64,000 nt of DNA from Gordius albopunctatus (taxonomy: Eukaryota), in contig OZ193909.1 in NCBI GenBank assembly GCA_964276515.1, positions 4,526,001 through 4,590,000 on the forward strand. Direction: 5' to 3'. The notes below the pieces were generated by a model that saw only the letters and a program-made list of their open reading frames with translations, made no database searches and was not told the origin of the DNA. The translations under genes were made by a program, and so were the position numbers. Shown here piece after piece: positions 5,460 to 61,799 of the stretch (position 1 is the first letter of the stretch; each line of letters starts with the position of its first letter).

Positions 5460-6606
5460 TATTCACACTTGTATTAGTTATAGTCAAATTGCCTGTATAA
5501 GGTACCGACAAGGGAATTCATTGGGCCCATGTTGTCTTGCAATTCAAAATTTTGCAAAGCCTATTTCCTTTAAATGTACCCTTACTTTTAATGTTTGGAA
5601 TCTCAACGAGGCCATCCAATTGTGCCCACTTCCCGGATTATTGCAAAGCCATCCATATTAATGAATATTTGGAACGATCTTAACTTAAGCAGAGCTGGGG
5701 GGAATCTAATTTTTCAAGCACCAAACCTAATTGGCTTTCTATTTTTTACACTATAAGCATTGAAAGAAAATTTTAAAATGTATTTTTTAAGATATCTCCA
5801 CAGAAACTTTGAGATTTAACCTGAATTAAAACATTCAATGTGCTTTTTTGCGCTCCCCTTTTTCTGAACCATTACAATTTAATTTTAAATTAAAATATTC
5901 ATTTATTTTGCTCTATTATTAAATTTTTGCACTGCCCCTTTAAAAGCAAACGAAGGCTAAGATTTTTTTAGCGAAAATATTCAATTTAAAATTTAACATT
6001 CACAATTGGTTCTAAGCCTCTTTACCGGCCAAATCAGAAGATTTAAAAATTGGTCTTCGTGGCAGCATATCCTAAGCAACTTTTATATACTCAATGAAAT
6101 TCGGTAAGGGTTGAATTTCTAAGCTTATACCACAAAATTTCGACCACCTGAGAGCTATAGCATATAAATGTCATAATAGAGACCATTTAATTTTAATGTT
6201 TGAGACGGATGGATTGGGATTATGGTCTATTCTTGCGATCCGTCAATTATCTGTCATTAAGCTGCAACGATACCAATCATTACAAACTTCGGTCCCTCGC
6301 TTTCAAAGGTTCCGGTCGCGAGTGGCTTGAAGTCTATCTCAGCCTACTTTTGGGAGCGAATCTGGACGATTTGGGCTTCCATAAACTGTAGCTTTAAGGT
6401 TGGGTATTAGTTACTAACGAATTTCTCTGTCGGGATTGTCTTTCATTAATAGACTAACGGCAAACACCCTCTATATTTTCTGGCTAATTTTTATTATCCA
6501 ATCATGGCCGTTAGGCAGCCATGATTGGACCTGTGGATTCCTGCAGGGCAAGCCTGCTATCGCCCACAGCGTTTATTACTAATAAACTAACACTATATAT
6601 GACCAT

Positions 6607-6720
6607 ATCTTCTTCTTTATCAGTTATTTGGTCCCACATTGGTGGGGTTTGTTTTGATGAGTCTCTTCCATCTTGACCAGGTTAGTGCCATGTCTTGACG
6701 AATCTCTTTAGTTTCCATAA
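6607..6720 (-). mobile_element. 3' terminal fragment of an RTE-clade LINE
   Basis: Closely matches the 3' end of the RTE copy at 50215-50300. The minus strand translates METKEIRQDMALTWSRWKRLIKTNPTNVGPNN*, followed by a short (GAA)n tail typical of RTE elements. Confidence 0.85.
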
Positions 6721-6735
6721 ATTTAAAGGAAGTGC

Positions 6736-7068
6736 TCACGCCCCGCATCTCGAGTATGCGTTCACCAAGATCTGTGACGTTATGGGTCTCGACAATATGA
6801 TCAAGATTAAACAGAACCTGGAGTGGGTTTCCACGGACAAGAATCCATATGATATGACATAATAAACAACAATGTGGCGAAATTTTTTATGATATAAAGT
6901 ATATATGAGGTGAATAGAAGGTGCTATATGTAAAGGTGTAAGATCGCGAAATCCAAAAGAGCGACTATAAAACGGTGGTAATTCTTTATATATCCGCGTA
7001 ATGTTAATGCGCGATTGGGTTAGATTGGTTCTGGACCTTCGTTCACCGAAATTTCGCCACCTGCTCAT
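6736..7068 (-). other. 110-codon ORF or promoter-like region downstream of the RT-RNase H ORF; function unknown
   Basis: Its ATG overlaps the TGA of the upstream polymerase ORF (ATGA at 7068-7065) and the N-terminus is Arg-rich. The same DNA carries two CCAAT boxes and TATATAAAG on the minus strand, so it may be non-coding. Confidence 0.3.
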
Positions 7069-8646
7069 GTGTCCCAGTCGAATAGCTCGTCTTCTTCCTC
7101 GTAGATATCAGGGATAGGCTGGCCCTCCGGCGGGATACCTGCGAGGATGGACGGAACCGTGTATCGCTCTGGTGGGATCCAGGTGCGCGAGGTGTAGTCG
7201 GCCGGATTATCGTCGGTCGGCGTCCATTGTACGCTATACCTGATGGCTAGGAGGGCGTCCAGGCCGTATTCTTTTACGAAACTCGAGATGAGGTCCTCGA
7301 TGGCCGGGGAATTGGATCCGCCTTTTATCAGGACGTAGTAAGCGCTCGATGAATCGGTGCGGATGCGTGGGAAGGGATGGTCATCGTATTTACCGACCAG
7401 GTATCCGTATAGTGCTCCGCTGGTTTCCGTGATCGTGATGTGGGGGCTGTCGGGAAGGGTGTAATTCATGGCTGCCGCTGCATCCGCGAATGTGATTGAT
7501 AATTGTCTGTCAGGGCAGTAGATTCGAATGTGTTCGCTTGACGCATCCGTGTAGATGGTGACATCGGGGGTAATGTACAGGGGGATGCGATGTTTTAAGG
7601 ATTCGATGATGACAAATAACTTGAAGCATGCCCTATTCATATTGAACAGGCGGGAGCGGTTCGAGAGGTACGCATAGAACGGAGCCAGCAGCTTTGACAT
7701 GCCGGTTAAGTTGTACAGGAAATAATTTAAGACGCCTAAGGCCTCTAGGAAGACCTGTGTGGGGGGAGCCGTGTTCGTGGGGAATGCGTAGAATAGAATG
7801 TCGGAGGCATATTCGAGGCGCGTGATAACCTGCGTCGTACACCGAATCGAGTGGTCCTCGAATGATATTTTAAGGCCTAAATATTCTATGTCCCTTTCGG
7901 GGAGTAGGGATGACTTTTGGGCATTGAACGTAAGACCCCACTCTGCGGCCAGTGAATAGATTGGCTCTAAGTCCTTCTGGACATCCGTACATGAATCTCC
8001 GTAGGTCAGGATATCGTCAAGGTATACATTGTATTTGCACCTAGTGACTGCCTTGGCGGTAAGGTCTGCTACGATCATTTGAAGCACGTAGGGGGAGAAG
8101 GATGCCCCCATGGGGAGGACTTTGTAGCGGAATTTCCGTGTTTGGAATGTGTAGGCAGTGTATTTCCGGGCCGAGACGTTCAGGGGTATGCTAAAGAAAG
8201 TGGCCTTGAGGGCGATCTTGGCGGCGTAGAACGCTCGGCTGAGTTGCTTTTGATGTTAGGGGTATCGATGCGAGTTTGATGGGATAATGGATAAAATTTT
8301 TCGATACCTGGGATAAATCTGTTATTACACGGGCGTCGCCGTTGGATTTTGGAATAAAAAAGGTTGCCGATTTAACTATTTCTCTGGTGGTTTCTTCTAC
8401 CACGTGAAAATATTCGGGTTTTCCACGAGAGATGGCTTTTCGCCGGGAGGTTAAGAATAAACCTCCGTGTTTGCGGATTTTGGGCATATCCAGTCTGGGC
8501 ATGAAGCCTTTTTTGGCGATTCGTTTAGTGAAGGGGGACTGGAGGGGATGTGGCCGTAGAGGGCTAGTGGGGGGTAGTGTGGGTTCTCTATTCCAATGGA
8601 ATATAGATTTGTGGAGGTCGAATATGGGCATCATAACAACACGCAC
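7065..8646 (-). pseudogene. Reverse transcriptase-RNase H of a hepadnavirus-like or DIRS-like retroelement, lightly disabled
   Basis: Joining ORFs 8646-8191 and 8111-7065 across one frameshift (about 8245-8260) gives FFIPKSNGDARVITDLSQVSK ... AAKIALKATFFSIPL ... YKVLPMGASFSPYVLQ ... VYLDDIL (8024-8013) ... GLTFNAQKS ... IEYLGLKI. RNase H motifs follow: IYTDAS, HITITE, RTDS, WTPTDDNPADYTSR. The motif-A Asp codon reads GCC (Ala) at 8213-8211. The segment is much richer in GC and CpG than its flanks. Confidence 0.85.
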
Positions 8647-10471
8647 TTAATTCCTAGTGTTGAAGAGAAGGGAGGGCGCCCTCTAGTCTGGTGTAATTTG
8701 TCAATGTAAAAGATAGGGATAATTAATTTTGTATATAATTTAAAAAGTAAAAGTTTTAGGATAAAAAAAAATTGTGAATACATTCCTCTCCCCTATATCT
8801 ACGTATTAAATCTATTAAACAAAATTTTTACCGATTAATTTGCAGGTAATGGACGTTTGAAAAACGCTAAAATCGCGTTTTTGGCGACTTTGACAGCGAA
8901 TATTTAAAAAACTTGATGTATAGGGATAAAACTAAAAACATATTTGTGTTCACAGTAAAAAACTCTACCAGAATCTGCAAATAGTTTGCAGGTTAATTTC
9001 ACAAGTCCATTATTTGTTGACCAGTGTTATTATATAAGATATAAATTGGTCATAATGGAACCAATTTTTATCTCAAACCCCAAAACACAAGCTAGATGAG
9101 TATCTTAAGGCAAGAAGCATTATTTTTCATAATGAATTTATTGAGATCTTATATAATAACGTTAAAATAATGACAAAAATACGAGAGTAAATTTTGAAGA
9201 TATCATTATTAATAACAAGTAATTATCTTAACATTGTAAATACAATAAAATAGGCATTGTTGTTGGAAGAACATAACAGTTTTGAGATCTTACGTTAATT
9301 GCACATATATAACATATAACATAAAATAAAAAATTTTCTTTAAAGCACAATTTACACTTCTCCATTTTATTTGATTTGAGCAGCTTGCTCTTTTTTGTGT
9401 TGGGTGATGAACTTGTTGCGCATAAACTCATTATAGGTCTAAATAATTTTATACTATATAAGCTATACAAATAAGTAACAAATACCTAAATACGCTAAGG
9501 GCTACTAACACTATGTCTATTAAGATTATATTACAAATTTGAAATTTGCGCGAAGCGGATAATTAGGTGCCTAAGTAATTACTATCAAAAGTTTTAAAAT
9601 CATATTAAATTGCATTAAATACCCTAAATTTAAATCTCATAAATAAAAATTTTTAATTAGTTAAATGAAGACTTAATAGATAAAAATTAAAGTCGAGATC
9701 TCGCCGATAAAATCTCGTCTCGTCTCGAGGTCAAAATTCTCGTCTCGATCTCGACTCAAATTTTCAAAATCTCGTCGAGACGAGGCCGAGATTTTTCAAG
9801 ACGAGACGAGACGACCCCGAGATTTTTCTCGGTTTTTCCGCATCACTAGTAAACAGCGCGTGTGTAGTATGTACTCCAATGTACTCCTTTTTCCAGACAT
9901 AGTGGAACGAATTTCGATAAGGAGAAAGGGTTCACAAAAAAGCGAATAAATTTAAATATAGAGGTGTAACAAAAAAAAATAAATGAATGGTCCTATAGTT
10001 GAAACTTTAATCTATAGAAATATATTACTATTTTTCACTAAATATTAAAAATCAAGAAGGCTTAAAAAGGGCATTTTGGCACCTTCAATCTCGTATATCT
10101 AAGAAACTGGTAATTGTGGGAAAAAAAATAAAAAAAAATATTATTGTTTCAGCGCAAAATTCTCTATCAGAATTATTGGTCTCTGATTGTAGGATGTGAT
10201 CACGAAGTCAATATTTGTAGAACTGTGTTATAACACCTACGTTATAAAAATTTGTATTATCCTTGTAACTATCATAAATAATGTCATAACTTAAAATTAT
10301 ATAATTTAGTATTATAATATTCTTATTTATTGTATATTTAAATATGTATTTTAACATTCATGCACTGCATAGGCATTCTTATCTGTCACTTGACTATGTT
10401 TCAGATGACACCAATTCTGATTTTAATAGTAAAAATATCCTGTTCACCAATCTACAGTACTATTAATTTAT

Positions 10472-11857: not shown

Positions 11858-12920
11858 TAGAGGTCTGCATGGGCCGAAATTTCAGGGTCAGGCCCGGCCC
11901 ATACCCGCACAAATATATATTTTTTTACCCATACCCGCCCCGCAAAATGACAACAAAAAATGCGCCGCATCAGGCCCGCACGAGAAAAAAGCGTCAATGT
12001 TTTCAAAAAAAATTTATTTTTATAGAAACAATTTTTCATGTATGAAAAAATTGTTATAGCATATAGAAACGATATTAATAAAGAAAATTATAATTCAATA
12101 TTGTCATTTAGAAATAATAAACTGTCTATTCTATCACGTAGTAGTCTCTTACTAAACGTGCGTTCACTTGTAGCGCTTGTGGCTGGAATTGCCAAAAACT
12201 GTACAGCTAACTTTGTCAAATTAGGTAGGATAAGGCCGTGTTCTTTCCACCATGAAATAATATCAAGCTCATCATCTATCGGTTTAAGATTTAATTTAAA
12301 ATAAGTATCAAATTCATTGCTCTCCTCAATCTGCTCTCTTCATCGTCCTCCCAAACGGAGATATCCATATCGACTTCACCAATAGCTAATTGCCTACATA
12401 CCTGAGCTGAATTGCTCATAGATGGACGACTGATGCAAGAAGAGCTAGAATCTTCTTGCATTAATTTATTTAAAGTTTGTGTTACCATGGTTTTAACAAG
12501 AATAGCAATGTTGATATTATAAGTTTGTAATAAGAAGGAGAAGTGTAGCTAAAACTAATTAATTATAAAATAAAATTTTTTAATGAATTACCTTAAAGCT
12601 TAAAACAACGTCAATGAGATCTTGGAACAAATATTAAGCAATCTAAGAATTTGAAAAGCGAGGGAAAAAATAAACTATGAAGTTAAAAACAAACACTACC
12701 TTCTATCCATTCAATTAATTTACTTAATTAACGAAAAATATAATATTAAATTTTCCCTCAAAATAATACTGTTCAAATAGCAAATTTTTGTTAGAAAAAA
12801 TAAATTTTTTATCATCAAGATAATAAATGCATTTTTTTGTGTCAATACTAAATTTTTTCACTTATCAAAGCCCAAGCCCGGCCCGCAATTTTTTTAGTGC
12901 TCATTTTCAGGTCCGGCCCC
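11858..12920 (-). mobile_element. hAT transposon remnant (C-terminal dimerisation domain)
   Basis: Minus strand about 12276-12110 translates DDELDIISWWKEHGLILPNLTKLAVQFLAIPATSATSERTFS, the hAT dimerisation signature. A hAT-like terminus tagaggtctgca lies at 11858 with GCCCG subterminal repeats. Confidence 0.8.
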
Positions 12921-13563
12921 TGAATCTCACGAACCCAATCTCACGATTTACTCATTGCGCAAGCGCATAATTTCGATATGATTGAATTCAAATTCTCTAG
13001 AAAGCAAAAACTTATATTAATTGCTGACAACTATGAATAAAAAAAAGCTAAAATTGGGATAAAAAATCAATCATACAACCGTTGTAGGCAGAAATATTGT
13101 ACAGGGAAACAATATAACACATGATCACTTAGCAATTCCTCATAAAGTTAAAATTATAACTATTACTAATCCTGTAAAACTTTAGGTGTTATATGAAACC
13201 TATTTTAGGTTTTATGAGGCATGTATAATCTAATTCAAATAATATGAGCCCTACAACTGAACTGTAAGTTTTATGAATTAGAATACATAACTTATTTTTA
13301 GAGAATACTTCTTATGCTCATGAAAATATTTATCCATATATACGACAAAGTCAATGCTATTATATGCATGTTGTATTTGTTAGATATGTACAATAAAATT
13401 AGACCATATAATTGATTTATTGGTATTAATTGAATCATTAAAACCTCAATGACTTATGGCACAGAGATGGCTTAATTTAGAGCAACAATGTCACATTTGT
13501 ATATCTTTTTTAAAATTATTAAATTTCAAATTAAATCACTTGAGTTAAAGTTACCTGATTTAA

Positions 13564-15049
13564 CCCTCCATCGTACCTATGGGGTCTGACAGACCCCACG
13601 AAAGTTATAATTTAACATCACTTAAACAGTTTAAGATTTAGAGATCTGGTTTTTTTTAGAGTTTTCCTAAATACACAAAAGCTACATTCCCGGAAAATTT
13701 CATTCGATTTACTCCAATACTTTTTGAGATATAAGCGTTTGGGGTCCAATAGACCCCATAAGGCAAGTTAGGAAAGTTTTTTTGTTTTGGCCAAAAAAAT
13801 TTTTTCATTTTTTTACTTAAAAATAGTAATTTAAATATGTATATAACATTTGAAATGAATATCGCTACTCAAAATTTTAATTATTGACAATTATTGATGT
13901 TCATGTGGAGCTATTTTTAGTAATTGTTGTAATCAGCTGTTATGAGTTGGCCAAGCATCTTTTGGCAAATCATTCCCTAACAATGGTGGGAACTCTAAAA
14001 AAAATAAAAGGCAAATTCCACCAAATTTTGGCCAAGCTAAAGATGCAAAAGTTTTATCAAGTAATTTTCTTTTCCAAGAAAATCTAACATTAGTATCTTA
14101 CATTCCGAAAAAAACAAGCAGGTGATGTTGCTGTCATCTCTCCATTATGACCAAAAAATTGACCCAGAATCTGGGACTGCTCAAAAACCAGAAATAATCA
14201 CCTTTTACAACATGACTAAAGGGGGGGTTGATATAGTGGATCAACTTTGTGCATCCTATAATGTTGCAAGGGTGTCCAATCGCTGGCCCCTTACTGTTTT
14301 TTTCACCTTACTAAATATCGCAACCATAAATTCTATGCTAGTTTATGAGTTTAACCATCAAATTCGCATGTCAAGGCAAAAATTTATAAAAATGTTGACC
14401 AGAGAACTCTCCAAAATACATATGGTAAACAGGTTGAATAACAAACAGCTCCATAAAGATACAAGGAAATTCATTAAACGATTGTACAACGTTGAAGAGA
14501 ATCCTGAACCAAGATCTGATAAAAAACGAAGATGTTCCAGTTGCCCCCGCAAGCGAGATGTAAAAACAAGATTTTTGTGCAATTCTTGTCAAAACCCGGT
14601 CTGTTCTAGTCACATTGTAATGTTGTGTGAAAAATGCAGTGAAAAAAACGAAAAATAAAACACCTATTTTTAAAGTCTTCTATTTTTTTTCTGTATAATC
14701 ATTTTATCGTGAAATTATGTTTTTTATATTTTTTAAACATTCTTTTAATAAAAAACATTTACTTTTTATATTTTTGACGAATTGTTTAGAATCTGTGACA
14801 AAAATAAAACATGTCACTTTATATTTTATGAATTTTCTTCATGTTTAGTAAATTGCATATAATTTTTAAATTAATATTTATAATCAAAAATTTTTTTTTA
14901 CAAACCTACAAGAGGCTTTAATAAACTTATATTTAAAATTAGAGAACTTTTTCTTTAATGGTATTAAAGCTACGATCATTTTAAGATTGGGGTCTATTAG
15001 ACCCCATAAGTCATTCTGGGAGAGTAATTTCTATAGGTACGATGGAGGG
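13564..15049 (+). mobile_element. Internally deleted piggyBac element
   Basis: TTAA at 13560-13563 and 15050-15053, and perfect 17-bp TIRs ccctccatcgtacctat / ataggtacgatggaggg. Palindromic subterminal repeats ggggtc-N5-gacccc occur at 13581, 13741 and about 14989. Only the C-terminal transposase remains (frameshifted TMVGTL region, then KPEIITFYNMTKGGVD, RWP and the Cys-rich domain at 14122-14658). Confidence 0.95.
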
Positions 15050-16209
15050 TTAAGCATTTTATCTAAATAAATTAGAATTTGTGGCTATAAATATATGTAT
15101 AAATGTTTATGTAACTATTTTTGTAGCCTTATAAAATTTCTTATATAAAATTTTTCATTTAAATATTTTCCATGATCTTAATTTTTATCTTTTATTATGT
15201 ATCTATATAAAAAATTTAGAAAATAACATTTTAAGGCCAAAATTGCCTAAGTTTGAACATCTTTATTTTTTTTTGTTTTTAGGATATTTTTTACCAAAAT
15301 TTCCATGTTTATAGTTTTAACCTTCTTTTATATGATCTTATTTTTATTAAATATGTTGGAAACATGGTTTAGAGTAAGTAAAATTTAATGATATCAGTAT
15401 TACAATTACATTAATTATGTGTGTAGGAAAAGTAACTTCATTAATATATATATTAGGGATAAAAGTATGTGTTGCTCAATTTGTAGAGAACATTGCTTGT
15501 TATCAACATGATTAATAAAGTCATTATAGACTTAAAATTTATTATTGGTAATAGTAAAGAAAAAGTAATTGCACAAATATATTTAATAAGAATAAAAGTT
15601 TATTAACATTTAGCATAGGAATTAGAAGGTTGAAATTTCTAGAATCATGTAAATGCATAGGTGTGGGTACATTTGTGATGGATATAGTCTGTTTTATCTC
15701 TGATTTTGTAATTATTGATATAACTTGTGTTAATCAAATATCTCTATTTGTTCATACCTCTTTTTATTATAAATTACACTATAAAATCTAAAATAAGTTC
15801 ATTAAATATTGTGTACTAACGTTTATATTTAAACTTTCAATATCATTCATTTATAACAATCATAAATGACTAATATTAGTTTATTAAATTTAATGGTATA
15901 TATCGCACTTTGCACTTGTGTTTAATTTACGAAAGAATTGTTCATATATAGATAACTTACATATTAAAGATCTACTTTTCGTTTATAAATTTGTGATATA
16001 TTTTTTAAATATATAATCTCACTCAAATTTTTTTATATAATTATAAAATATACATCATTAATGATTAATAAGATATACAATATGTCATCTTTGTAAATTT
16101 TTACTTTTACATATAAACATACGATAGATTCATACATCGTGATATTGAGTGTGACATTTAGACCCAAATCCCAGCTGAGTGATAACTTTACGTTTTGTTT
16201 TAAGATGAG

Positions 16210-17047
16210 ATGAGTTTCTTATTGTAATGAATTTATTTATTTATTTATTATTATATGATTTATAGTGGGACTAGATCCTCAAAGACCTTTAAGCCTAAAA
16301 AAAATATTCCAGAGGGAACACATCAATATGATTTGATGAAACATGCTGCTACTACTCTAGGAAGTGGTAATTTGAGGCAAGCTGTTGCACTTCCTGAAGG
16401 AGAGGATTTGAATGAATGGATTGCCGTGAATGGTAAATATAGTTATATTCTTTCTAAAAAAATTAGTTGTTGACTTTTTTAATCAAATAAACATGCTTTA
16501 TGGCACCATAACTGAATATTGCACACCATATAAGTGTCCACTAATGAGTGCAGGACCTAAGTATGAATACCACTGGGCAGACGGAACTACTATAAAGAAG
16601 CCAATAAAATGTTCTGCCCCTCAGTACATAGATTTTTTGATGACCTGGATACAAGAGAAACTAGATGATGAAACATTATTTCCATCAAAAATAGGTAATT
16701 GCTTGGTCATTTTTGCTTTTGCAAATCTATTTTTGTTATTTAAAATTATTTATATTTTTTTAAAGGTGTTCCTTTCCCCAAAAATTTTATTTCAACAGCA
16801 AAAATCATATTGAAACGTCTTTTCCGGGTATATGCACATATCTATTATCAACATTTCTCTGAAGTTATGAAATTAGGTAACTTATTTATTTTGATATGTT
16901 TAAATTAAGCAAAAAGGGGAAGAAGCTCACCTCAACACCTCTTTCAAGCATTTTATATATTTTATACAAGAATTTAATATGATTGAAAAACGTGAATTAG
17001 CTCCATTGCAAGAGCTTATTGATAAACTTACTACTAAAGACAGATGA
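16210..17047 (+). CDS. MOB1: MOB kinase activator 1 (Mob1/mats), 5 exons
   Basis: Exons 16210-16223, 16266-16432, 16467-16694, 16766-16876 and 16917-17047 splice in frame to MSFLFGTRSSKTFKPKKNIPEGTHQYDLMKHA...EEAHLNTSFKHF...LIDKLTTKDR*. Confidence 0.97.
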
Positions 17048-20000
17048 AAACACTGTTTATATTTTATTTATATTGCTTTGGCTTAAAATGTGATAATCAG
17101 TAATATTAATTATATTTATCAAAATTATTTATTACAAGTTCTTTACTATATGCAAATGGTTTTGAACCATTATTGTACATGCAATCATGAAAACACAAAG
17201 TTGTGTCATTATATCTATTTGTAACTTTTTTGCATTAATTTTTGTAATAAACAACTATAGAAATTGTTAAATTCACTTTTTAAAATGAATACGCTAAGTT
17301 TATAGTAAAGTTAAAATATGGTATTGAAATTGTTAATTATTAAGAAGAACCATTATATCAATCCTTATTTTTTTTTAAAATTCTATCATTAAATATTTTA
17401 ATTTTTGAGAATATCAAATTATTTTGGAATAAGTTATGCATTAAAATTAAATTATCAGATTTCTTTTGAATATTTTATTACTTCTAATGTGTAGCATAAA
17501 ATGAAATTTTAATCAGTTAAATGTACACTTATGAGAGAGAGTATGTTAGCAGGGAAAACATTTTAAGTTAGTTGTTTAGAGGATAAGTTTTTAAATGCAA
17601 AAACAATTGTCATTTCTTAATTCCTGACTTATCTGTATTTACTAGTATTGTCTTAGGTAAATGATTAAAATCTATTAAGCAGCTAGTCAAAGTTTGCCCC
17701 TAAACATCAATGTAATCCCGAACCGTGTCCTATTAAGTAGATTTTTTCAGCCTAAGCCTGGCGTTTCTTTTTGTTTTTACTTCAACCCTAACTTAACCCT
17801 ATTTTTTCAATATTCATGTCGAACTAAACCAAATGATTATTATAAAATCTGAACCCAAACCGTAATTTAAATTATCCATAACTTACCTGTTGAAATAACA
17901 AAGTTTTGAATTGACGGGGAAACATGTGAAACTCGGTAACTTTATAATTTAGATGGACTGAATAAAATATGATGCAAAAGTTTTTTAAACTGACCCCAAC
18001 CCAATGAATTGAACTGAAGCAAACTAATCTATTATAAAATAATATTTAAACAAACTCAACTCAATATTGAACAATTATCTTCACACAGCGCACATTATAT
18101 AGCTTCCAAACTTCAGCTTTTCCCCTGTCTATAATAATATAACTGACCTGAATCGCAAATCTTATTCTAGTATTTAAATATATTTATAGTATTGCGAAAT
18201 AAGAAAGGTAAATATTTCAAAAAAAATTTCGTAAGGAACTGTTAAATATAATATATTTTTTAAAGTTATATTTTTTTATTTCAAACTTATCCTAGTTTTA
18301 AATTACGAGTAATAACTACTGCATTTTATATTAAAATAGTGAAATAATTTTCAAAATAAAAATGTTCAAAAGTTTTATTCGAAAAATCGGGTTGGGCCTA
18401 GATAAAAAAAACTCTTTCGGGCCGGACTCGGACAGAAGAAATTTCACTTTGCAGGGCTGTAGTTATAGGTGAACTGGGTAGCGCAAGATCACGCTAAAAT
18501 TAAGCTTTTCTTTAAAATCGTTTAAATTGAAGTATTTGTTACAGGATCATGTTGTATGGTCAAAAATGAGGAGATTGGAGTGTATTACCCCTATAAATTA
18601 ATAAAATTAAAGCTAATCAATTGAGACTTTAAATTTATATTAAGGATTAAAATATATGAATATAATTTTGGTTTACCAACAACCCGTGAATTGTTATGTT
18701 GGAAAGATAAAAGAGGTATGAGAGGCGCGCATCTAATTGGAAATTATAAATGATGCGTTATTTTTAAATTTATATTACTTAATAGTTATTATTAAGCTGG
18801 TCCATCCAAAACATGATGATATTAGCGCCTAATCGGTAAAAGAAAAAATATTTGTAGGCGGATCAAGTTGAGACCTAAAATATTAAGATAAGTCTGAACC
18901 TCGTGATTCACATTAGAGTAGAAAACAACAAAGTCACTTTTTTTCAACTCGAACCCAACCCGAAAGTAATTAAAAAATTTCAACCCGAACTTGACGCTTA
19001 AGCGTTTAAAATTTTAAACCCAAACTTTACAGGAAAGCGTTTAAAATTTTGAACCCAAACTTTACCGGAAAACGCTTAAATTTTTTTAACCGAATCCCTC
19101 CCGAAGGCGTTTTATTGGTATCCGACGGGTAGTAAGAAAAATTGCGGTGTAAACTTAATCGACAGATTAAAGTGCGATTTATGAAACTAATTGATACCAC
19201 AGATTTCGATTACTAAATTTATTTGAATGATTTATTGTAGTGATGTACGAATATGATAGCATCTACAATATCGGGTCCCAAATCAATTTGTAATGTTTGC
19301 ATATAAACTCTTTAATAATTTAAATTTACTATTATGTTGGTTCATGAGTATATATTTATATAATTTAAATTAATAATGAATTAACACTTCATACTATTTA
19401 AAAATATTATTTTATCAATATATATTACCTTTCACGAGTCATATTTTAAAATGCGTCCAAATTAAAATAATCATATTTAAAATACAACTAAAAAAATAAT
19501 TAACAGAATGAATTATCTTAAATTATACATTTCGATATTAATTAAAAATATTAGTCCCGTGTATTTTGCAATGTAAGATTCATAACCTTTGACCCGACCT
19601 TCATTCAAATCAGAGACCAGGGGCCGGGCAACTGTCCTAAATTTTTATTTTCGGGGGGCCCGGGTGGGCGGCACGAAGATAGGTTTCGGGCAATTGGGGC
19701 TTAATAAGATTTTTAAATAGTGTATTATTTTGTTACTTTATATTTTATTGCATATTAAAATGCTAAAAAAGTTAAGAAACTTGATTTCGCCATCACAAAG
19801 TTTCTCCAATTAACCTTTATTATTCGTCGCTTTCGCTAAGTTACTACTTATTTTCATGATAAAAAATTTCTATACCTTTCTTTTTTTGCTTCAAGTTAAA
19901 AGAATTATCCATAAATTGCATTTAAATTCGATTGATAAATTATTGTCTTTTTAACAAAAAAGTAAGTTTAAACAGAGCACAGATTGACTAATTGAACTAA

Positions 20001-21205
20001 TTTTATTCATTAAGAAGCTTATTTATGGGCAGGGCAAAGGGGTTAACTCAAAAGGGGAGTATAATTTCGTTTATCGTAATATTATTTATTAAATATGTAA
20101 ACTTTAAACTTAATTAAAAAATTGCTGCATAAATATTTTCTAATTAAAAAATTGCTGCATAAATATTTTCATGGACTTGTTTTATTAAATATGCCATTAA
20201 TTTAATGCTTATTTTTTAATTGCGGTTGAAAGAATTTGAGATCGCAAAATTTCGGGCCTAACAGGCAAATTTAATATTTCGGGTCGGGCAGCTTTAATGT
20301 TTCGGGCGGGCAATCAAGTTAAAAAATTGAAACGGAACAAATCTTAGCCCTGCTTCAAATCCAACCCGCCCGACCACAAAGCATTTTCAAACAGTTTTAA
20401 ACCCAAACCCGACGCGAAGACGTTTCAAAACTTTCATGTCTGGTAAGGTCACCCGTGGAGGACTCTACATTTGAGACATTTATGTTAAACATGTTACCTC
20501 GGTCAACACATTAGGTATTGTATCAAATTTAATTACTACTATTATGCATAATATGGTATCGGGGTTAATAAATCACGTAAATAAGCATATAAATATGCTT
20601 ACGAAAACGATGCTTAGGCTGGAATTTCTCAAAAGGTCGACACGCAACCTAGAGTAGTAACATTCAAAAATTGCCCCCCGACGAAAAATCGAAAATTTAA
20701 TCGTAATAATATAGGGATAATAATGATTGATATGACAAAGTGTGTGTTTGTGGTTTGTGCGTTTAAACCCTCGAGCCCCGAAAAATAAAATCCCAAAAAA
20801 CATTCCGGAAAAAAATAAAAGTTGAGCGGAAAAGAGTATTAGCAAATAATTAAAAAGGCAATTTAAGAGCTTGGCTGAGGCATGGTGTGGGCAAGTGATA
20901 TGTTAAAACCCAGTTGGCTTAAAATTTAAGCGTTTTTAACAATTAAGGAGACGGACCAGACTAAAATATCGTAGTGATGAGGAGGTATTACAAAGCTTTT
21001 GACAATAAATGTTCCCCTCAAAAATGTGTATTATTACGGAAAACCATTGCGATTCTCTTATAAAGGATTGCATTGCAGCTAGGAAAAATGAGTAAGAGAT
21101 GACATTTTTTATAATGGATAAAACGACAATTTTTTTAAAAAATCTCGGTGAAAGAAAAGTTGAGGATAAGGACACTGCAAGGCTTTCGGTTGATTGGTGG
21201 TGGTG

Positions 21206-24200: not shown

Positions 24201-27200
24201 GGAAAAGCTTTAAAAGAATACGCCGTTTATAATGTATCCCCACACAGAAAAAATTTTCTTCCCTAGGGTTGCTTTAAATTGCCAACTAATATTATTAATT
24301 ATTAGCTTCGTAAATCATATTTTACGCACATAATTACTACACCTAAATTTAAAAAATCTCGTTGTTCCCACGTTTTTTCCGTATTTGCAACCCCTTTTAC
24401 CCTTTATAAATTAACTAAAATAAAAAAAGAGATGGCAACACCTCTCTGTAACTTATCAAAAATTCGCTTGCTGGCTAAAAGTATAATTTGATCAAATTTC
24501 AATGGCAAAATCGAAACCGAAATATTTTTTCTGAACCATCTATAGAGAGGGACTTTGCAATTTGTCAAAGCTGATAAAATGTAAGCACTCTTATAATCTA
24601 AAAAAAGTCCCCAAAGGCTTACGGGATAATAGTCGGGGTCGTCGTTGCACATTTGCAAAAAGCGTTCCACCCGGGCACTAGAATGTTCGGGGCCCATGCC
24701 CTCGTAGCCGTGGGGCAGGAGCATGACTATCCCGCTTTGCCGAACCCATTTAGCTTGACCCGATGAGATGAATTGATCTATTATGCACTGGGCCGTGTTA
24801 TTGAAATCTCCGAATTGAGCTTCCCATATGATCAAGGAATTGGGTTTGGTCAGGGAGTAACCCAACTCGAAACCTGCATAATGTACAAGCGAGTTTATGA
24901 GCACTTAAGCGCTAAGCAATGTATAAGCCGATTTTATTTAATCCAAAATGTCCTGTCTGTCTGTCTGTCCCGTAGTAATAATAATGATAATGCATTTGTA
25001 GTGTTGTAAAAACGGCTAGGATTGGTTTGGTCGATCTTCGGTTTTAGTGGACTAAACATCAACAAACCAAATATGTTTTAGCCGTTGACTCAAAAATATA
25101 CTCCTTCCACCGAGTAGGAATCTTTTCCCATAAAAATATTAGATGGTAAGGATGAGATAGTGGTACCGAACCGACGAATACATATGACGTGTAAGCAAAC
25201 TTTCGTTAACTTTAATTTAAAATAAAGGATTTCACCTATCCTCCGTGAGAGAGCATGGGCAAAGAAAGAGATAGTACACTGACGCAATCGCTAAAATGTG
25301 AAAAACTTTTTAAGGTTATGATGATACTCTAGGTGAGATGTGTGTATATTTTTCTGATAACAACAAACTTTCGTAAACATCTATAATACAAACAACGGCT
25401 ATTATTCATGAAAGTTGTGAGAAACTTTTTAATTTATAGTTATGCTAACAGTAACAGGATTCACGCAATATTTTTTTGTTTAATCATAACGTACGTCTTG
25501 GCATTATTCTTCCCAAATGACTAAACTAATGATTTTCAAGCGCTATTCTAACGTCACAAAATCAAAGAAACTAGGGCAACTTCCATCTCAAAAGTCACTC
25601 CAAAACTGGAAAAAAAATATTTAAAAAAAAGTGAACCTACTAGGAACAGTAATAAAAAAGATTCGTTTTGGACGTGATATAAATCACAAATCGTCGTGCA
25701 TACCTAAAACGGCGTATTCGGAGAGCGAGCTATTACAAACGGTGTAGGGTGGCTGATTAGGCCACATATTTTGCAACGGTACCATGGTGACCGAATCGCG
25801 ATCTTGGTCGTGCAAGACGTGATGTCGATGGCTAGCAACAATCAGATATCACGAAATCAATCAAATTATAAAGGCAAAATTATTCTCATTCGCGAATTTA
25901 AAAAGGTGAAAACTGAGAAAAAACCCAAATTTTATTCACTATAAAATTTAGTCATGTCAAAAAATTTAAAGGGGTCCTGTAGATCAAATTAAGGCAATTA
26001 TATATTTTCTATTTCTAAAAGCGTCTGTGAAACGTTTTTCTAATAAATTTATTCTTAGACTGCACCACTCCGTTGGTTAGTTTCAAATAAATGACACGGA
26101 TGTGAAAATGTTCATAAAATAATTTGCCTAACGATTGATTGCTTATTAGCAAAAGCGGAAAGAATTCAAACGAGCTAATATAAATCAGTTATTATTTTTT
26201 ATTAACCTTCCAAGCAAAATATTTTGGAAATTCGTGTCTTAATCACATCGACATATAACTTGGTGGCAATAATTTAAGTGGAAAAAATTAAAGCGATCCC
26301 CTTAATTATTCCTTCAATTCTCAAACCGCAGCGCATATAGAAGTTGGGGGAGGGGGGGATGTACCTAAAAGTGCCCCTCTCGACATCTTGACCACTTAGC
26401 CTCACGTGCACGTCGTCTTTTAGGAGAGACCCAAAGGCAAAGGCTTCACCCAGAGCCCAATCCACAACTCGATCTTTAACCATGTTCGCTCTTTGATTGA
26501 GCACCCTCTTCAAACCTAGGCCAATTTGAGGAAGAAAATAACGTAGCCAGGAATAGTGAATATTTTTTATCGGGATTCAGTCAGCAAAACTTTTTAAATT
26601 TCAAATCTGTTCTACAATCCGCGAAAAGATAGTTTCTTCAAAGTGGATTAGTTAAGAAGAGAATAAAAATGTCAAATGAGTCCTTTTAAATAAAAGCCCA
26701 ATTTATGGGTGAATGCAAAAACATTTATCGACAACTTTGAATCGTATAGAATACCAGCGCCGACACAATCGTGTCTTAAAAAACGGTCTGCTTAAGGCCT
26801 TGTCTTAATATCGGATTCAGATTCAAATGGCGCGAATTTATCTTTATCAAATATCCGATACCATTTCATGTGTCAAACTCGGTTGCAATTATTAATATTT
26901 TGTTTTTTGATAGTTAAAAACGTTTTTTTTCGTTGTTTATTTCAACTCTTGAGATTAATCGCTGTTATATTATGCGTCGTCTGAAATGCAAATCTGTTGC
27001 TGTGAATTAGAAGTTAAGACACGGGGCTATGTTATAACCACCCGTACAACGATTTTTGCTGCACAGCAAAATCCGATATTAAGACAAGCTCTAAGTCGGA
27101 CAAATAGCGATTAAATCGTAAATTAGCCAGTTTTCATTTGCAAATTTTAACGGCTAAATTAAAAAGATAACAAATTCAATTGTTACTCACAAAAATTTAA

Positions 27201-39100: not shown

Positions 39101-42100
39101 AAAACGGAAAAAATAATTTCGATTCACATTTTGGCAGAGGGTCATTTTTTCCATTGGTCAGCAGCCAGGACACGGTAAAAGTGGATATAAATTCATAACA
39201 GTAAAAAAAACGAAAAAAAATTTTCGAATCACATTTTGGCCAATGGTCATTTTATTCCATTGGTCAGCAGCCAGCGGACGGACAAAAAGTCATAATAGCA
39301 ATGGTAGGAACAGGAACAATCGTAATATTCAAAAAAAACGAAAAAATAAACTCGGATACACATTTTGGCCAATGGTCATTTTTTTCATTGGTCAGCAGCC
39401 AGCGGATGGCCAAAAAGTCTTATTATCATTGATAGTAACAAGAACAATCATAAGAGTCAAAAAAAACTCCGGGATTCTAACCCAAAAACTAGATAAATTG
39501 CATAGCAATTATTAAAAAGTATAGGGTAATTATCAATGTTAACCTATTCAAAAACGAACAAAAAATTTTGATTTATTTGGCCAATGGTAATTTTTTTCAA
39601 TTATCAATGTTAACTTATTCAAAGAAAATTTGAGCCATTTTGGGCTAATACTTTTTGAGTTATGGACGCTGAAATGGCCAAAATCACGCTTGGGCGTGTT
39701 TTACAAATTTCACTATTTTCCACATATCTTCAAAAGTATTGCCGCTAGCTTCGTAAATTTTGCTGTATTTTAATCCTAATAAAATTCTCTATCAGAAAAA
39801 TGTAACATAAAACCGCAAACTTTTGTGGTTAGTGTTTTGTGGTCAAATTAGTGGAAAACTAAAAAAACCACCTTCTCTGTTATATATCATCACCAAATTT
39901 GCTATGGGGACTCCTTTATGCTTAGTTATCAAATTTCAAATTTAAAAAGTTTGGGCACGGCTATGAGTTGGTTGATAAATAGAAAATTCACAAATAAATT
40001 AAAAATATTTCTAGATGGCGGTATAATCAAATATTAAGGAATATAAATTTTAACCATATTTTATTACTAAAGAGCCATATAAAGTATTGTTTGATAAATA
40101 AATCATTTTGGGATATAATTAAAGGAAAATTTTTAAAACACCTACTTAGCACAAAGCAATTGATCGGATTGTAATTTATACCTTAAATAATAAAGGTTAA
40201 AAGTATCTCTTTCTTCAAATATTGTTTAACGTTTAGAGATATGAAAAAGAGTTTCCTTTGACTAAATATAAGATGACGCAATAATGAATCAATAAATATT
40301 CTTTTATTATATAGATTTTATTTAAATAATGATAATGCGCAATAATTAAATTAATTTCGATTTTCACTAAATTATTTTGTGTTGTGCTGTAACCAAATTA
40401 ATTTCTACCGTGTTAAGCGTATAACTGCGTCCGGTGATTGTGTATGGAGACACTTTGAGTATAACATCTGATTTTTTGAGGTTAACTTTATTTAATTTAG
40501 ACGGGAAAAAAAAGATTTTGCCGGACCATTAGGATGTAAAAGATGAGCGACAATATATTCGTTTATTAGATCCTTGTCTACAATTAAGGCTAACCACCAT
40601 TTATTCTGGTATCTACATGCCACGTAACCATTTAGATTTTCAAAATCAATTTCATTCGCTATTTGAATTTCTTCCTCAAAATATTCACTTGAATTAGAAT
40701 ACATCTTTGTTTTAATTATCTTTCTGTCAATAGGTATTGAAGCATGTAGCTTTTGCATCCCAGAAATTGCTCGATTGAATCGAGAGGTAAGTTTCAATTC
40801 CTCTTGTTTAAACTCCTCATTCGTCATATAACCAAAACTTATATTATCGACTAATTCGATCTCATAATTACTTAATGTTTTACCTGGCTGTAGATTTGGA
40901 GTGGATAAAATTCCTTTTTCCATTTTGATTTTTTTTGCCCGTCTTGCCATATAGTATGAAACATTGAAAACGGTCTTAATTTTTTGGGCCGTCCAACTAT
41001 CAGGGAGTAGTGTCAGAATACGATATTTATTACTTTTGTTTAATAAAGGAAAACCAGATGAACTATCTAGAAGTTCGGAATCGATCGAAGATTGAGCGTT
41101 TTCATGGGTGATATTAAAGGTTGTGTCAAGGCTTTTCTTAAGTTTGGCTAATTTTTTCAACGGATAATTTATTTCCCCTAGTCTCTTTATTTTGATGGGC
41201 GATTCGGCAATCATTGGTAATGATGTATTAAGGGCTTGAATAGATGGTCCTGCTATTTCTAAAATCTTATTTTTTTTGGTGAATAAGAAGGATCAAAAGA
41301 AGGGTTCATATTGGGATTATCCCGACCTTGATAAAGTTTTTTGCGACATACATCACATAATTTTGCAATGGGATCTACAAAATTCATCAATTTGGCAACT
41401 TTTCTTATTCCTATGACTTCATCCTTATGTGTCTTCAATGGATTACAGCAATAGTAGTTTTTAGGCATAGAAAATTATATTAATAAAAACTAAGTTTTTA
41501 AATCAATGTTAGAGAGTGGAAAACATTAAATTGATATGAAACCGATCTTGTTTTTAAATCAATAACGCTGTTGCACATGTGGTAATTAATTATTAAATTA
41601 TAGTAAGCTGGATGACTTGCCATATGCTATTTCATAGGCAATAAAAAGCATGGCATTTGCCATTCATTAATGAATGAATTCATCTATGTTTGAAGTAAGA
41701 GATACCTTAAACCTTTATTATTTAGGTATAAATTACAATCCGATCAATTGCTTTGTGCCATGGTTAAAATTTATATTCCTTAATATTTGATTATACCGCC
41801 ATCTAGAAATATTTTTAATTTTTTAAATTTGAAATTTGATAACTAAGCATAAAGGAGTCCCCATAGCAAATTTGGTGATGATATATAACAGAGAAGGTGG
41901 TTTTTTTAGTTTTCCACTAATTTGACCACAAAACACTAACCACAAAAGTTTGCGGTTTTATGTTACATTTTTATGATAGAGAATTTTATTAGGATTAAAA
42001 TACAGCAAAATTTACGAAGCTAGCGGCAATACTTTTGAAGATATGTCGAAAATAGTTAAATTTGTAAAACACGCCCAAGCGTGATTTTGGCCATTTCAGC

Positions 42101-50214: not shown

Positions 50215-52140
50215 ATCTTCTTTATCAGTTATTTGGTCCCACATTCGTGATCTTGAGCGGGTGAGTTCCATGTCTTGACTAATCTCTTTAGTTTCCATAA
50301 CTTAATCGACTTGTCCTTTCCACGTGACACGGGGTCGTCCTCTTCCTCTCTTCCCCGGTACCTCCATGTCCAGTACTTTTCGATTTACGTCTTCCGTATC
50401 CCTCCTTAGTATATGCCCATACCACCTTAGGCGATTTTATTTAATAATGTCCGTTGAATATCCATTTTTGTGATGAGAAAGTCATTGGTCATATGGTCGA
50501 GCTTAGTATAATACCCCAAGCTCCACCGTATCATTCTCATCTCTGTGGCTTGTAATAGCTTTCCTTGCGTGGTGTTTAATGCCCATGTTTCACTTAAATA
50601 GAATAACGCCGGTCTTACGATGGATTTGTAAGCTTTGCTCTTCAACCATATTGGCATTTTCTTGTTGCACATTACACCGGATATACTTTGCCATTTAAGC
50701 CATCCTTTTTGAATCCGGGCATTGATTTCAGTTGCGCAACCTCCCTCTTGATGTAGCATAGAGCCGAGGTAAGTAAACCTGTCTACTTTTGGGTACTTTA
50801 GGTGGTCATCCAGTGATGGGGTGCTTGTACCGTTCATTTCCATGTATACCGTTTTTCGATCGTTGACCTTTAAACCATATCCAGCTAAGCGCTTTGACCA
50901 CTTTTCTGCTTCTTCGAATACCTTCTCCCTTGTTTCCTCACATAGTACTATATCATCGGCATATAGCATACACCATGGCGATGGCTTTCGAAAGTCCCTC
51001 GTTATCGTGTCTATAATTATATTAAATAAAAAGGGGACTTAAAGCAGAGCCTTGATGTAATCCAATATTAACCCGAAAAGGTTTAGAGTCTCCAAATGTC
51101 GTCCTAACGCAAGAGTTTGAGGCTTCATAGATATTTTTCATAAGCCGTATATATGCGTCAGGGATATTTTGTTTCCTCAGGCACCACCATATTAAATCGC
51201 GAGGGACCGTGTCATAAGCTTTCTCCAAGTCGATAAAAACCATATGTAGGTCTTTCCTCTTTTCACCATACTTATCCATCATTTGTCTTAGGGCGAAGAT
51301 TGGGTCGATTGTGGATTTTCCGGCCACGAATCCGAATTGATTAGTCGATATTTCCACCTCGTTTTTCAGCCTTGTTACTAGGATTCTTTCCATAAGCTTC
51401 AAGGAGTGACAAGTTAGCTTGATACCTCTGTAATTGCCGCAGTCCTGAGGGTCTCCTTTTCCTTTGAATAAGGACATAATCGTGCTTGCTCTCCATTGAT
51501 TAGGGATTCGCTCTTCTACCAATATCTTGTTAAGGAGGTTCGTCATGGTGGTGACTCCTTCTTCATTTGGGCCATTTGCTTTTCCTTTTTGCATCTTGTT
51601 CATTTGTGTCCTAACTTCATCCTTCTGAAAGAGTTCGACCATACTTATATTTGGCTCAATTTCGAAAAGGGAATCCTTTTCATTTGCAATATTCATAAGT
51701 TTCTTAAAATATCCTTTCCACCTTTCCTTAACTTCCTTCGGCTTGAATAAGGTTTGACCCTTCTCGCTTTTGACTATTTTAAGAACTCAGACATCTCGAC
51801 TTTTCTTCTCCCTTATCTTGGCCAATTTGTACATAAGCCTATCGCCCACTTTATGATCCAGTTTGTTTGCCATCTCGGTGTACGCAGCATTCTTCGCTTT
51901 TGCAACGGCCTTTTTTGCGGTCCTCTTTGCGTCCCTGTACTCTTGATAATCCTCCGACTTTTTTGATTTATGCCACCGTCTATATAGATTTTTCTTTATT
52001 TCGATGAAATCTTTAACCGATTGATCCCACCACCATAGTTCCCTATTCATAGCTTTGCCTCCTTTGGTCTGTCCTAGAACACGAATCGCTGTTTCCTTAA
52101 TGTCCTTAGATAACGTCTCCCAATCGTCGTCTACGTCCCT
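50215..52140 (-). mobile_element. 5'-truncated, decayed RTE-clade LINE
   Basis: Fragments read ELWWW, DCGNYRGIKL, QFGF, FIDLEKAYD, GLHQGSALSP, MLYADD, FTYLGS and ETWA, with stops and frameshifts. The 3' end has a short GAAGA tail. Confidence 0.93.
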
Positions 52141-52501
52141 TTTAGTGTTTCGACCTCGAAAACAAAATCTCGATCTCGTCTCGACTTTTTAAAAAAAAAT
52201 ATACGGAATAAAAATTTCTCCCGTTTTATTGAAATATTAAACAAGTGTTAAAAAATTAAAATGGCAACATTTTATATTTTTTGAAAAACCTTAATACGCA
52301 AACTTTTTAAAGATTTAGTGGGACCCACATCTCATTCACAATATAAAAACATTAATTCATTCATAAAAATAACATTTTCTATGGAAAGTGCAGACTAAAA
52401 AACTATGATTAAATTTGAAGTATAGAAAATTAAATTTTATTGTTCTAGCAAATTTTAACATTTGTATCATATCACTGTGTTTGTCAAATATAAATAGACT
52501 T

Positions 52502-57110: not shown

Positions 57111-58502
57111 TTAACAATCAATTTCATTATTTTTATAAAGAGTTTGTAGGCGTATCACTTTTTTAGCCTTTGTTTCCATTTTCCCTTTAACTTTAAACAA
57201 TATATTTCCATTGTTGATTTGTATTATTTTTGTTTCAGTATTCCTCTGATATTCCTTTATCATTTTTATAAAACTATAGATATTAGGATGTGGTTGTTTC
57301 ACTATCTTTTTTAAGGCACTGTGATAACCTTCCAAGTGGTTGTTGGTGGTTATGCCAGGGGTTTCATATTTCCCCCACAAACAATATGGAAACTTTGCAC
57401 TGTCATCTACCCATACATCATTTACATATCTTAAAAATCTTTTCATGTTAGTATTATTGAGATTTCTAGAGACAGCCCTACATTGGTCAAACACTAAGTC
57501 CACATCCAATTTTTTAAGAAAAGGGAAATTACAAATTTGTTTTAATATAGTCTCTAGTAAGGCCCAATTTCTTAGATTTTCCAATCATTGCTTGTGAAAA
57601 ATGGAAATAGCAACCTTAAAGGATACAATTTACATAATGCATGATTTTTACCTTGAATTATAATGTCTGGGAATACTGTTTTTAGGGCTTTAATGGAAGC
57701 CATCTCAAAGTCAACCTGCCAAAAGCTAGGATTGAATGTAGACCCTATATAGCTGCACACTGTTTTCAGACTTTTAAAAAATTGAACATATGTGTTTGAA
57801 AATTTATCTGGATATGGTTTTTATACAAAATATGAAGAGTGTAGGCATAAAATTAATATATGTGTTGTTTTAGTTAGGTACTTGATAAAAAGGTTAGGAG
57901 TTATATAAAATGTGCCATCAGAGTAAATCTTTTTAGTATCACACATAATTTTTAAAAAATGTGGTGTTCCAAATATAAACAGTCTATTCTCTATATTCTC
58001 CAATAAGAATGGAGTTCCATCCTCAAGATAGTGGCAATCCCGGGGAAGTATAATCTCGTCGCTTGTTCTAGGCACTTTTGACCTGTTTTGTGGGCAATCA
58101 GATTCATGGTTCGGTTTATGGATTTTAAAGATGGTAGGGCATGGGGGTATTGCCATATATCTTCAACTTCTTCGCGTCTCTGATAGATTATATCATTATA
58201 TACCTATTTAGGGTTAATGAGTTCATGAAACAAAAATATATAATTACTTTGGTTATGGGTTGCATTGGATTATTATCCATTGCCTCCTTCGATTTACTTT
58301 TTGTTACAAGATATTGATACTCATCAGTATCCGGTTCATCGCTATGATGTTTCTTTATTTTGACAACATTGTTCAAATATATAAGTCTGCAAGGACATTT
58401 AGAATGTCTGCATCGATAGTATGTGCAAATCTTTGTAGTTTTGTCAACTACATAATGATAACTGTTCAGAACTAAAATATTTTTCCCTTTTTGGGATGGC
58501 AA
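57111..58502 (-). pseudogene. MULE (Mutator-like) transposase with an N-terminal FLYWCH-like domain; intron-containing and disabled
   Basis: SQKGK..YYRC....C...H zinc finger, then YSDGTF, VDFE, GCYFHFSQA (after removing intron 57651-57615), TTNNHLEGYH and HPNIY. Frameshifts and an apparent internal deletion are present. Confidence 0.85.
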
Positions 58503-60759: not shown

Positions 60760-61799
60760 TTCATAAATGACTTTATTTTATAGGCAATGGCTAACCCACC
60801 CGATTTAGCTTTTTGTATAAAGATTGTAGTGAAAATAACAACTTAATGATACATTATATGTTTTTATCATTTTTATTTACCTTTCGTTTTAATTTGATGG
60901 AACGCCAGGCGCGTAGCCAGGATTTTCACAAGGGGGGTAGGAAATCTGGCAAAATTTGTTCCCCATTTTATTTGTAATTAGAATTAAAAATTAAAAAACC
61001 AAAAATTTGGGCTTGCTGCTGGGCCCATTCGGCTAAGGGGTTGGGAAAGCTACCGTTCTAAATTGAGATTTTTAAGTAGGCCTGCGCGGGCAACATAATG
61101 AGATTTTTTATATAGTTTCCTATTTTTTTGTCACCTTTCTATTTATAAAAATTCTAGAATTAGATCAAAATTTTTTGAGAAATTTAAAATCGTCATTATG
61201 GACCCGGCTGTTCGGACAGCATTAGTGAATTTGGCAATTAAGAGGGGTTTGGCTGGCCTTGGCAGGCAATTTAGTTATCAAACCGAGATGGGTTCTAGCA
61301 GAAAATTTTAGACAAATATGAAAAATGGTAAAAGTATTAATATTATATTGAACATTATAATAATCGCTTAGTTATCTACTTCATGGGGGGGGGGGGGTCT
61401 GGTGTTTTCACGGGAAATATAATAAATGTTCTAACAAGATTTTTTTCATATAAATTTTCCCAATCATATTCGGAAATTTTACAACGCATTTTGTCAAAAA
61501 TTAAGATTTATATATTATGTTTTTAGGTTTTTATAAGTGTCTTAAAGTCTTTGATGTAACTAAACTATAATATTTTTTTTAACCCTTTTTAATTTAATTA
61601 TTTATCAAAAAACAGGGCCCTCATTTACCCCACTATGGAGCGCACATTTCAATCCAGCCATGGCACCTAGCTCAAAATCTATTTGAGCAATTTAGGTTGA
61701 ATCCAAATGCCATAAACATTACAAATACAGACTAGCCTATTAAAAAGCTATATATGTATTGAGTATAGCTAAAATAATTTATAACTCAACCGAGCCAGA

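Follow-up and report, generated by a model that had tools for sequence, protein, structure and literature searches.

The 64,000-nucleotide stretch of Gordius albopunctatus DNA analysed here (contig OZ193909.1 of assembly GCA_964276515.1, positions 4,526,001 to 4,590,000; hereafter, the window) carries at positions 7065-8646 a gene that encodes a reverse transcriptase (RT) followed by a ribonuclease H (RNase H). The gene bears lesions, is truncated and belongs to a multi-copy family, which forms a separate branch in phylogenetic trees together with proteins of the horsehair worm Gordionus. This family is likely an undescribed deep lineage, with its own branch among the relatives of DIRS, VIPER, HEART and the hepadnaviruses. 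The reading that we tentatively favour is that the window holds a truncated, dead copy of a repeated RT-RNase H family that constitutes a deep branch of its own and likely lacks both an integrase and a recombinase.

The gene is distributed over two reading frames (Table 1), which overlap near position 8250, the site of a single frame break. Jointly, the two frames align with Gordionus RT-RNase H proteins over their full length (tblastn, E 2e-19 and 1e-70). The N-terminal frame (8194-8646) is 41-44% identical to Gordionus proteins P0001, P0002 and P0006 (tblastn, E 1e-19 to 1e-22), and the main frame (7065-8255) matches the Pfam family RVT_1 (E 8.6e-21) and is 36% identical to P0001 (E 8e-66 in a word-based search). 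Counted from an ATG at 8634 on the minus strand, the gene measures about 520 codons. These data bear out the preliminary description of this DNA, which had proposed an RT-RNase H of that length with one frameshift; the motifs quoted therein and the Asp-to-Ala change in motif A are all present in the sequence. The gene was also described as GC- and CpG-rich: its GC content is indeed high (0.505 in the gene island versus 0.323 across the 64-kb window), whereas the observed/expected CpG ratio (1.10 versus 1.02) reflects just the GC content. The acidic tail said to end the open reading frame (ORF) is a family trait, found as well in Gordionus P0002, P0003 and P0009, whereas its end point in the window is private to this copy. 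An Rfam scan gave one match, at chance level.

Three sets of sequencing contigs carry the stretch, two from organism A (runs X1 and X2, from one study) and one from organism B; the family is present in both organisms. Contigs were aligned to the locus at 80% likeness, and the summed depth is not to be equated with copy number. In X1, the depth is 330-510 for the locus's own contigs and rises to 12,000-15,000 over conserved portions of the gene. At sites within the RT-RNase H gene, 8-14 contigs carry a different letter, and long pieces are 80-85% identical. These variant contigs suggest at least 10 related copies, perhaps a few tens. None of the RNA runs listed carries the stretch, and no joint suggesting a circle was found among the 15 of 27 that were listed.

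The window copy is decaying rather than fresh, and is cut on both sides by high-copy repeats. We read it as such because some or most of the other copies do not share its frame break, its altered motif A or its final stop, and because of the repeat cuts. The stop at the end of the main frame is missing from about 80% of the depth in X1 and is private to a minority of copies. Among the best-supported 40 of 428 rows, 14 of the 17 differences listed for the main frame fall at first or second codon positions. On the 5' side, the repeats that begin at 8635 show a depth of 126,000-1,320,000 in X1, and 37, 19 and 46 contigs have unlike flanks before this position. On the opposite side lies the end of a long interspersed nuclear element (LINE), which is 72% identical to 50216-50303, just beyond the RTE-like ORFs of the window from which its RTE label is taken; at 6608 the depth exceeds 1,000,000 and the flanks are variable. 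The earlier suggestion of a probably young insertion is doubtful in view of the private lesions and of the cuts at 8635 and 6608-6725.

The only close relatives found are six Gordionus proteins (P0001, P0002, P0003, P0006, P0009 and P0152), which are 33-49% identical to the window protein and are annotated as uncharacterised (accessions include XP_065317776, XP_065315196, XP_065315139, CAK9296138 and CAK9304925). They belong to the same family as the window protein, being its sister in both trees described below and sharing the acidic tail. A word-based search returned two proteins, both from Gordionus (36% and 33%), and HMMER searching of 1.84 billion representatives gave two matches below E 1e-30 plus two Gordionus fragments; the first match outside the family had an E value of 8.5e-18, and the remainder of the 150 listed were DIRS-type, gypsy-type or unnamed. 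Among viral contigs, neither the window protein nor the family alignment had a relative, and the same held for the L014 clade and the HEART-like group. The literature, searched by title or abstract start, contained no description of the family in the window and Gordionus, and a search by accession was empty. Likewise, Gordionus is not mentioned in any of the 10 supplements of PMC12691608.

For phylogenetic placement, rows (63 and 53) were hand-picked out of some 160 proteins plus 13 hepadnavirus loci, with the window represented by its main frame. Two motif scans of viral contigs gave 13 and 18 contigs of 3.0-3.4 kb, of which the 13 translated proved to be hepadnavirus polymerases and served as the hepadnavirus references; all other group labels were assigned in this analysis from domains and motifs, and the trees contain no named Ngaro, VIPER, HEART or nackednavirus sequences. 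In the RT tree (63 rows over 191 columns; the bootstrap had not entirely converged), the window and Gordionus proteins group at 100/98, outside the clades of DIRS-type elements (97/93), hepadnaviruses (100/100) and HEART-like proteins (99/93), and are joined to seven unnamed proteins at 88/85. The RT+RNase H tree, with 53 rows and 393 columns, again has the family (100/99) outside the DIRS-type (97/88), hepadnavirus (100/99) and HEART-like (98/92) clades, all within a single polytomy. The family is thus a separate branch of this polytomy, in which no sister relation to the hepadnaviruses appears. Gypsy-type rows are split from the family at 100/99 in both trees, so that it does not fall in the Ty3/gypsy clade of the Ortervirales. 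In a quick version of the RT+RNase H tree, the family had clustered at 83 with hepadnaviruses, HEART-like rows and unnamed rows, a grouping that was lost in the careful tree. In approximately unbiased (AU) tests on the RT alone, neither a union of the family with hepadnaviruses (p 0.20) nor one with DIRS (p 0.23) was rejected.

HEART elements, attributed to Gong and Han, are reportedly RT elements of invertebrate genomes, namely those of arthropods, that are related to the Blubervirales. The preliminary description had suggested that the gene may belong to an undescribed lineage near HEART or nackednavirus-like viruses. An undescribed deep lineage agrees with our trees, and the HEART-like profile gives the best score, yet the family is separate from the HEART-like clade. 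The sister placement to hepadnaviruses or HEART-like elements, which had been named as support for that proposal, was not obtained. Conversely, nesting within a DIRS clade had been named as evidence against it, and the family falls outside the sampled DIRS-type clade of 20 rows in both trees, with the AU value above leaving a DIRS union unrejected.

The family's profile scores were 299.7 for the HEART-like group, 292.7 for DIRS, 229.6 for a small metagenome clade and 130.0 for hepadnaviruses, the first three groups having been drawn from one search and sharing a common bias. As a control, DIRS scored 197.2 against the hepadnavirus profile, above the value of the family, and the window protein ranked 85th of 168 on the hepadnavirus RT-RNase H profile, with 41 bits. 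The RNase H of the family comprises 121-122 residues, versus 93-95 in seven hepadnaviruses, and carries DAS instead of the hepadnavirus DAT motif. It lacks the GWG motif of DIRS, which 32 of 78 RNase H rows carry. Motif C is YLDD in both the window protein and Gordionus. The NPAD..SR motif occurs in 23 of the 78 RNase H rows, 13 of which are neither family nor hepadnavirus members (three of the DIRS clade and 10 others), and does not support a special tie to hepadnaviruses. A structure model of P0001 (mean predicted local distance difference test, pLDDT, 64) has template modelling (TM) scores of 0.46-0.50 to the hepatitis B virus P protein and an unnamed 634-residue entry, versus 0.33-0.37 to retrovirus or caulimovirus proteins; since the fold library is devoid of DIRS, the comparison is not discriminating. 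The position intermediate between DIRS-like elements and hepadnaviruses that was originally proposed is not supported, given the profile rank, the DIRS control and the wide occurrence of NPAD..SR.

Neither of the two RT-RNase H frames matches a recombinase, integrase, terminal-protein or methyltransferase family in Pfam, and none was found in any of the 44 flanking ORFs of at least 38 residues, in agreement with the earlier account, which could recognise none of them. A tblastn search of the window with the L020 recombinase gave a best E value of 0.65, away from the element. The RT-RNase H is the last same-strand ORF with a recognisable domain; in P0001-P0003 and the window protein, the RNase H is followed by a tail of 11-90 residues only, with no methyltransferase. 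The Gordionus models show no recombinase or methyltransferase after the RNase H. Their conserved start is preceded by just 45-65 residues, which would not accommodate a terminal protein, and PF00242 is absent from the five models scanned, all of which may be incomplete. The lack of a recombinase or methyltransferase after the RNase H, together with the multi-copy state of the 200 downstream bases and of a convergent gene beyond them, supports an integrase-free element. As the 5' side is cut at 8635, the missing upstream recombinase or terminal protein proves little.

The convergent gene was overlooked in the preliminary description. It is represented by a C-terminal RNase H fragment, distantly related to the first, that is 42% identical to residues 412-459 of P0001 (tblastn, E 1.5e-6) and matches the RNase H end of the family profile (E 2e-8). 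The fragment is also found in organism B, and 10 of its 14 listed variants are at third codon positions. The depth over the second fragment, the spacer and the 3' end of the first gene is 18,100, 16,000 and 20,700 in X1, and 3,400, 4,400 and 4,200 in X2. The depth of the spacer in X1 ranges from 12,600 to 20,700, versus 330-510 for the locus's own contigs, and 16 (X1) and 11 (X2) variant contigs align at 6930; in other copies the RT-RNase H gene likely extends into the spacer with its final codons. Six and seven contigs continue past 6725 with a common sequence unlike the LINE piece. A second gene with an RNase H, convergent to the first, is therefore likely part of the native unit, as judged from the matching copy depth rather than from a bridging contig. 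Such a two-gene layout is odd, with no precedent met in the literature compared. A weak search, with two candidates, found no longer protein bearing the second fragment. An inverted motif of 12 bases at 6874/7049 was discounted, since 21 of 289 window tiles contain one, though only 35 of 2000 shuffles do.

Table 1. Features of the RT-RNase H locus and its surroundings in the window.
Feature	Positions	Strand	Remarks
N-terminal RT frame	8194-8646	-	151 residues; RT part ~8250-8634; first four codons (8635-8646) are flanking repeat
Main frame	7065-8255	-	396 residues; RT palm and thumb, connection, RNase H, acidic tail; motif A altered
Spacer between convergent genes	6861-7064	.	about 200 bases; multi-copy
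Second RNase H, C-terminal fragment	~6720-6860	+	same family; faces first gene tail to tail
RTE-type LINE 3' end	6608-6725	-	very high-copy; cuts second RNase H gene; not part of element
Moderately GC-rich, partly repeated stretch	6040-6607	.	GC ~0.39; depth up to 48,000 at 6537
Very high-copy repeats	8635-10358	.	cut element on 5' side; not part of element

According to the favoured reading, working members of the family would transcribe an RNA and copy it into DNA by means of their own RT, whereupon the RNase H would remove the RNA strand. The DNA may then enter chromosomes through host repair or the enzymes of another element. This integration route would be that of integrase-free reverse-transcribing DNA elements; like the priming and the intermediates, it is inferred. 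Several observations weigh against this reading. Tens of copies under apparent selection would be accounted for more simply by an integration enzyme of the element's own, and the gene order of VIPER leaves room for a recombinase upstream of the RT, beyond the cut at 8635. X1 and X2 come from one study and possibly from the same source as the window DNA. With respect to the native unit, no contig among those listed bridges both genes, and at 6871-6883 the depth falls to about 1,300, with one other contig per run aligning with small indels. The tie to the recombinase-free loci L014-L018, supported at 88/85 in the RT tree, is gone in the RT+RNase H tree. Finally, the HEART-like label derives from a by-eye comparison of motifs with the Ixodes HEART rows in a supplement of PMC12691608.

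A real possibility, though one that we hold to be less probable, is that the locus derives from an animal element of the VIPER/TATE order (gag, recombinase, and RT-RNase H last), the upstream part of which has been cut away, and that the RNase H opposite it belongs to a sister subfamily and was inserted next to it. According to PMC6681497, VIPER-like elements have three ORFs, with the RT/RNase H as the third, as it is last in the window, and their RNase H groups with those of hepadnaviruses. Such an element would account for the copy number. Moreover, in the two Atlas clusters that match P0001 best, Euglenozoa predominate (0.96) where the phylum is known, which is the case for three members of each, and the clusters for the unnamed protein P0021, placed with the family at 88/85 in the RT tree, give the same lead. 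However, P0021 is long-branched and its link to the family vanishes in the RT+RNase H tree. VIPER/TATE are known only from kinetoplastids, with no credible case outside them according to PMC6681497, and neither of the two papers retrieved for VIPER-like elements in Metazoa concerns such a case by its title. An automated survey (bioRxiv 2024.06.11.598342) detected no DIRS in four nematomorph genomes. The recombinase, gag and split direct repeats of VIPER/TATE are not seen in the cut window copy, and the convergent second RNase H gene has no counterpart in the passages compared.

A more far-reaching version of the integrase-free reading, which we consider unlikely, is that of a new family, possibly a small horsehair-worm DNA virus that became endogenised, with two divergent polymerase-type genes on opposite strands, and part of a large unnamed radiation of RT-RNase H elements of 2-3.6 kb that gave rise to HEART and the hepadnaviruses. 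The family differs from HEART itself not only in forming a separate clade: the Ixodes HEART rows in a supplement of PMC12691608 carry W-x-H/Y-[LI]-D-N at motif C, in contrast to the YLDD of the family. The likeness to HEART resides in the unnamed HEART-like proteins, for which the family's profile score is highest.

It is improbable that the gene is an ordinary, fast-evolving DIRS1, PAT or Ngaro element, displaced by a long-branch artefact within a jumble of unrelated fragments. Like DIRS1-like, PAT-like and Ngaro elements, the family has the RT N-terminal segment, the RNase H length and a helix segment, in addition to a KGGS-type segment; its DIRS score is nearly the highest, a DIRS union was not rejected, and Ngaro is absent from the trees. 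Unlike them, it lies outside the DIRS-type clade in both careful trees, and there is no recombinase or methyltransferase after the RNase H, a stretch common to many copies. In addition to the missing GWG, the Ngaro motifs of 10 rows in a supplement of PMC12691608 are absent from the family, as compared by eye.

Endogenised fragments of a Blubervirales-type virus (a relative of hepadnaviruses, nackednaviruses or proto-nackednaviruses), towards which the preliminary description leaned, are likewise improbable: the NPAD..SR end, the PMG..SP motif, the lack of an integrase, the RT-to-RNase H arrangement and TM scores of the P0001 model, the unrejected hepadnavirus union and the quick-tree grouping are set against the lowest of the four profile scores, below that of the DIRS control, the rank of 85, a longer, DIRS-sized RNase H of DAS rather than DAT type, the lack of room for a terminal protein in the possibly incomplete Gordionus models, the absence of a core gene in the cut copy, the dissolution of the quick-tree grouping in the careful tree and a fold library without DIRS.

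Gordionus offers a deep branch with intact gene models in a chromosome-level animal assembly, in which the full-length structure is directly readable. Should it lack a recombinase, the family would show by what means integrase-free RT elements can last as tens of copies; with one upstream, it would extend VIPER-type elements to animals.

Among eight loci considered as candidate kin, five (L014-L018) are metagenome contigs of 2.5-3.3 kb in which a small ORF overlaps a long RT-RNase H ORF with an acidic spacer, with no recombinase; the remaining three comprise a short fragment and two loci of DIRS type that are more distant. The RNase H of L014-L018 is of the DAT type, and their layout is hepadnavirus-like in an unnamed lineage. 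Their small ORF is helical with a basic tail and has no match to a Pfam family, solved sequence or fold (model pLDDT 59), such that a core-like role for it is unsupported. These loci indicate that recombinase-free relatives can exist, their tie to the family being weak. Nine further unnamed, deep-branching RT-RNase H proteins (P0011, P0013, P0040, P0047, P0048, P0023, P0056, P0092 and P0112) are encoded on contigs of 2.0-3.6 kb; these proteins mostly end soon after the RNase H, and this set possibly represents an undescribed radiation of small retroelements or viruses. Seven proteins from metagenome and run assemblies (P0092, P0112, P0107, P0056, P0059, P0018 and P0029) group together with good support and resemble HEART in their motif C, which reads W-x-H-x-D-D.

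In the vicinity of the gene, the stretch at 6040-6607, possibly a decayed extension of the second RNase H gene, has no match to the family profile at E 10. Positions 9690-9850 form an imperfect palindrome of GAGAC-type repeats, which occurs at very high copy number and shows numerous internal deletions; it is likely a small non-autonomous element. Elsewhere in the window, we take 12088-12339, 14065-14655, 40495-41292 and 57114-57584 to be transposase-like fragments, with motifs resembling those of hAT, piggyBac and Mutator, and 50216-52188, 62297-63798 and 58939-60777 are presumably pieces of RTE-like LINEs together with an RNase H-integrase frame that is gypsy-like. The segments 16430-16810 and 24407-24904 are assumed to be host exons, resembling MOB1 and 2-oxoglutarate dehydrogenase.

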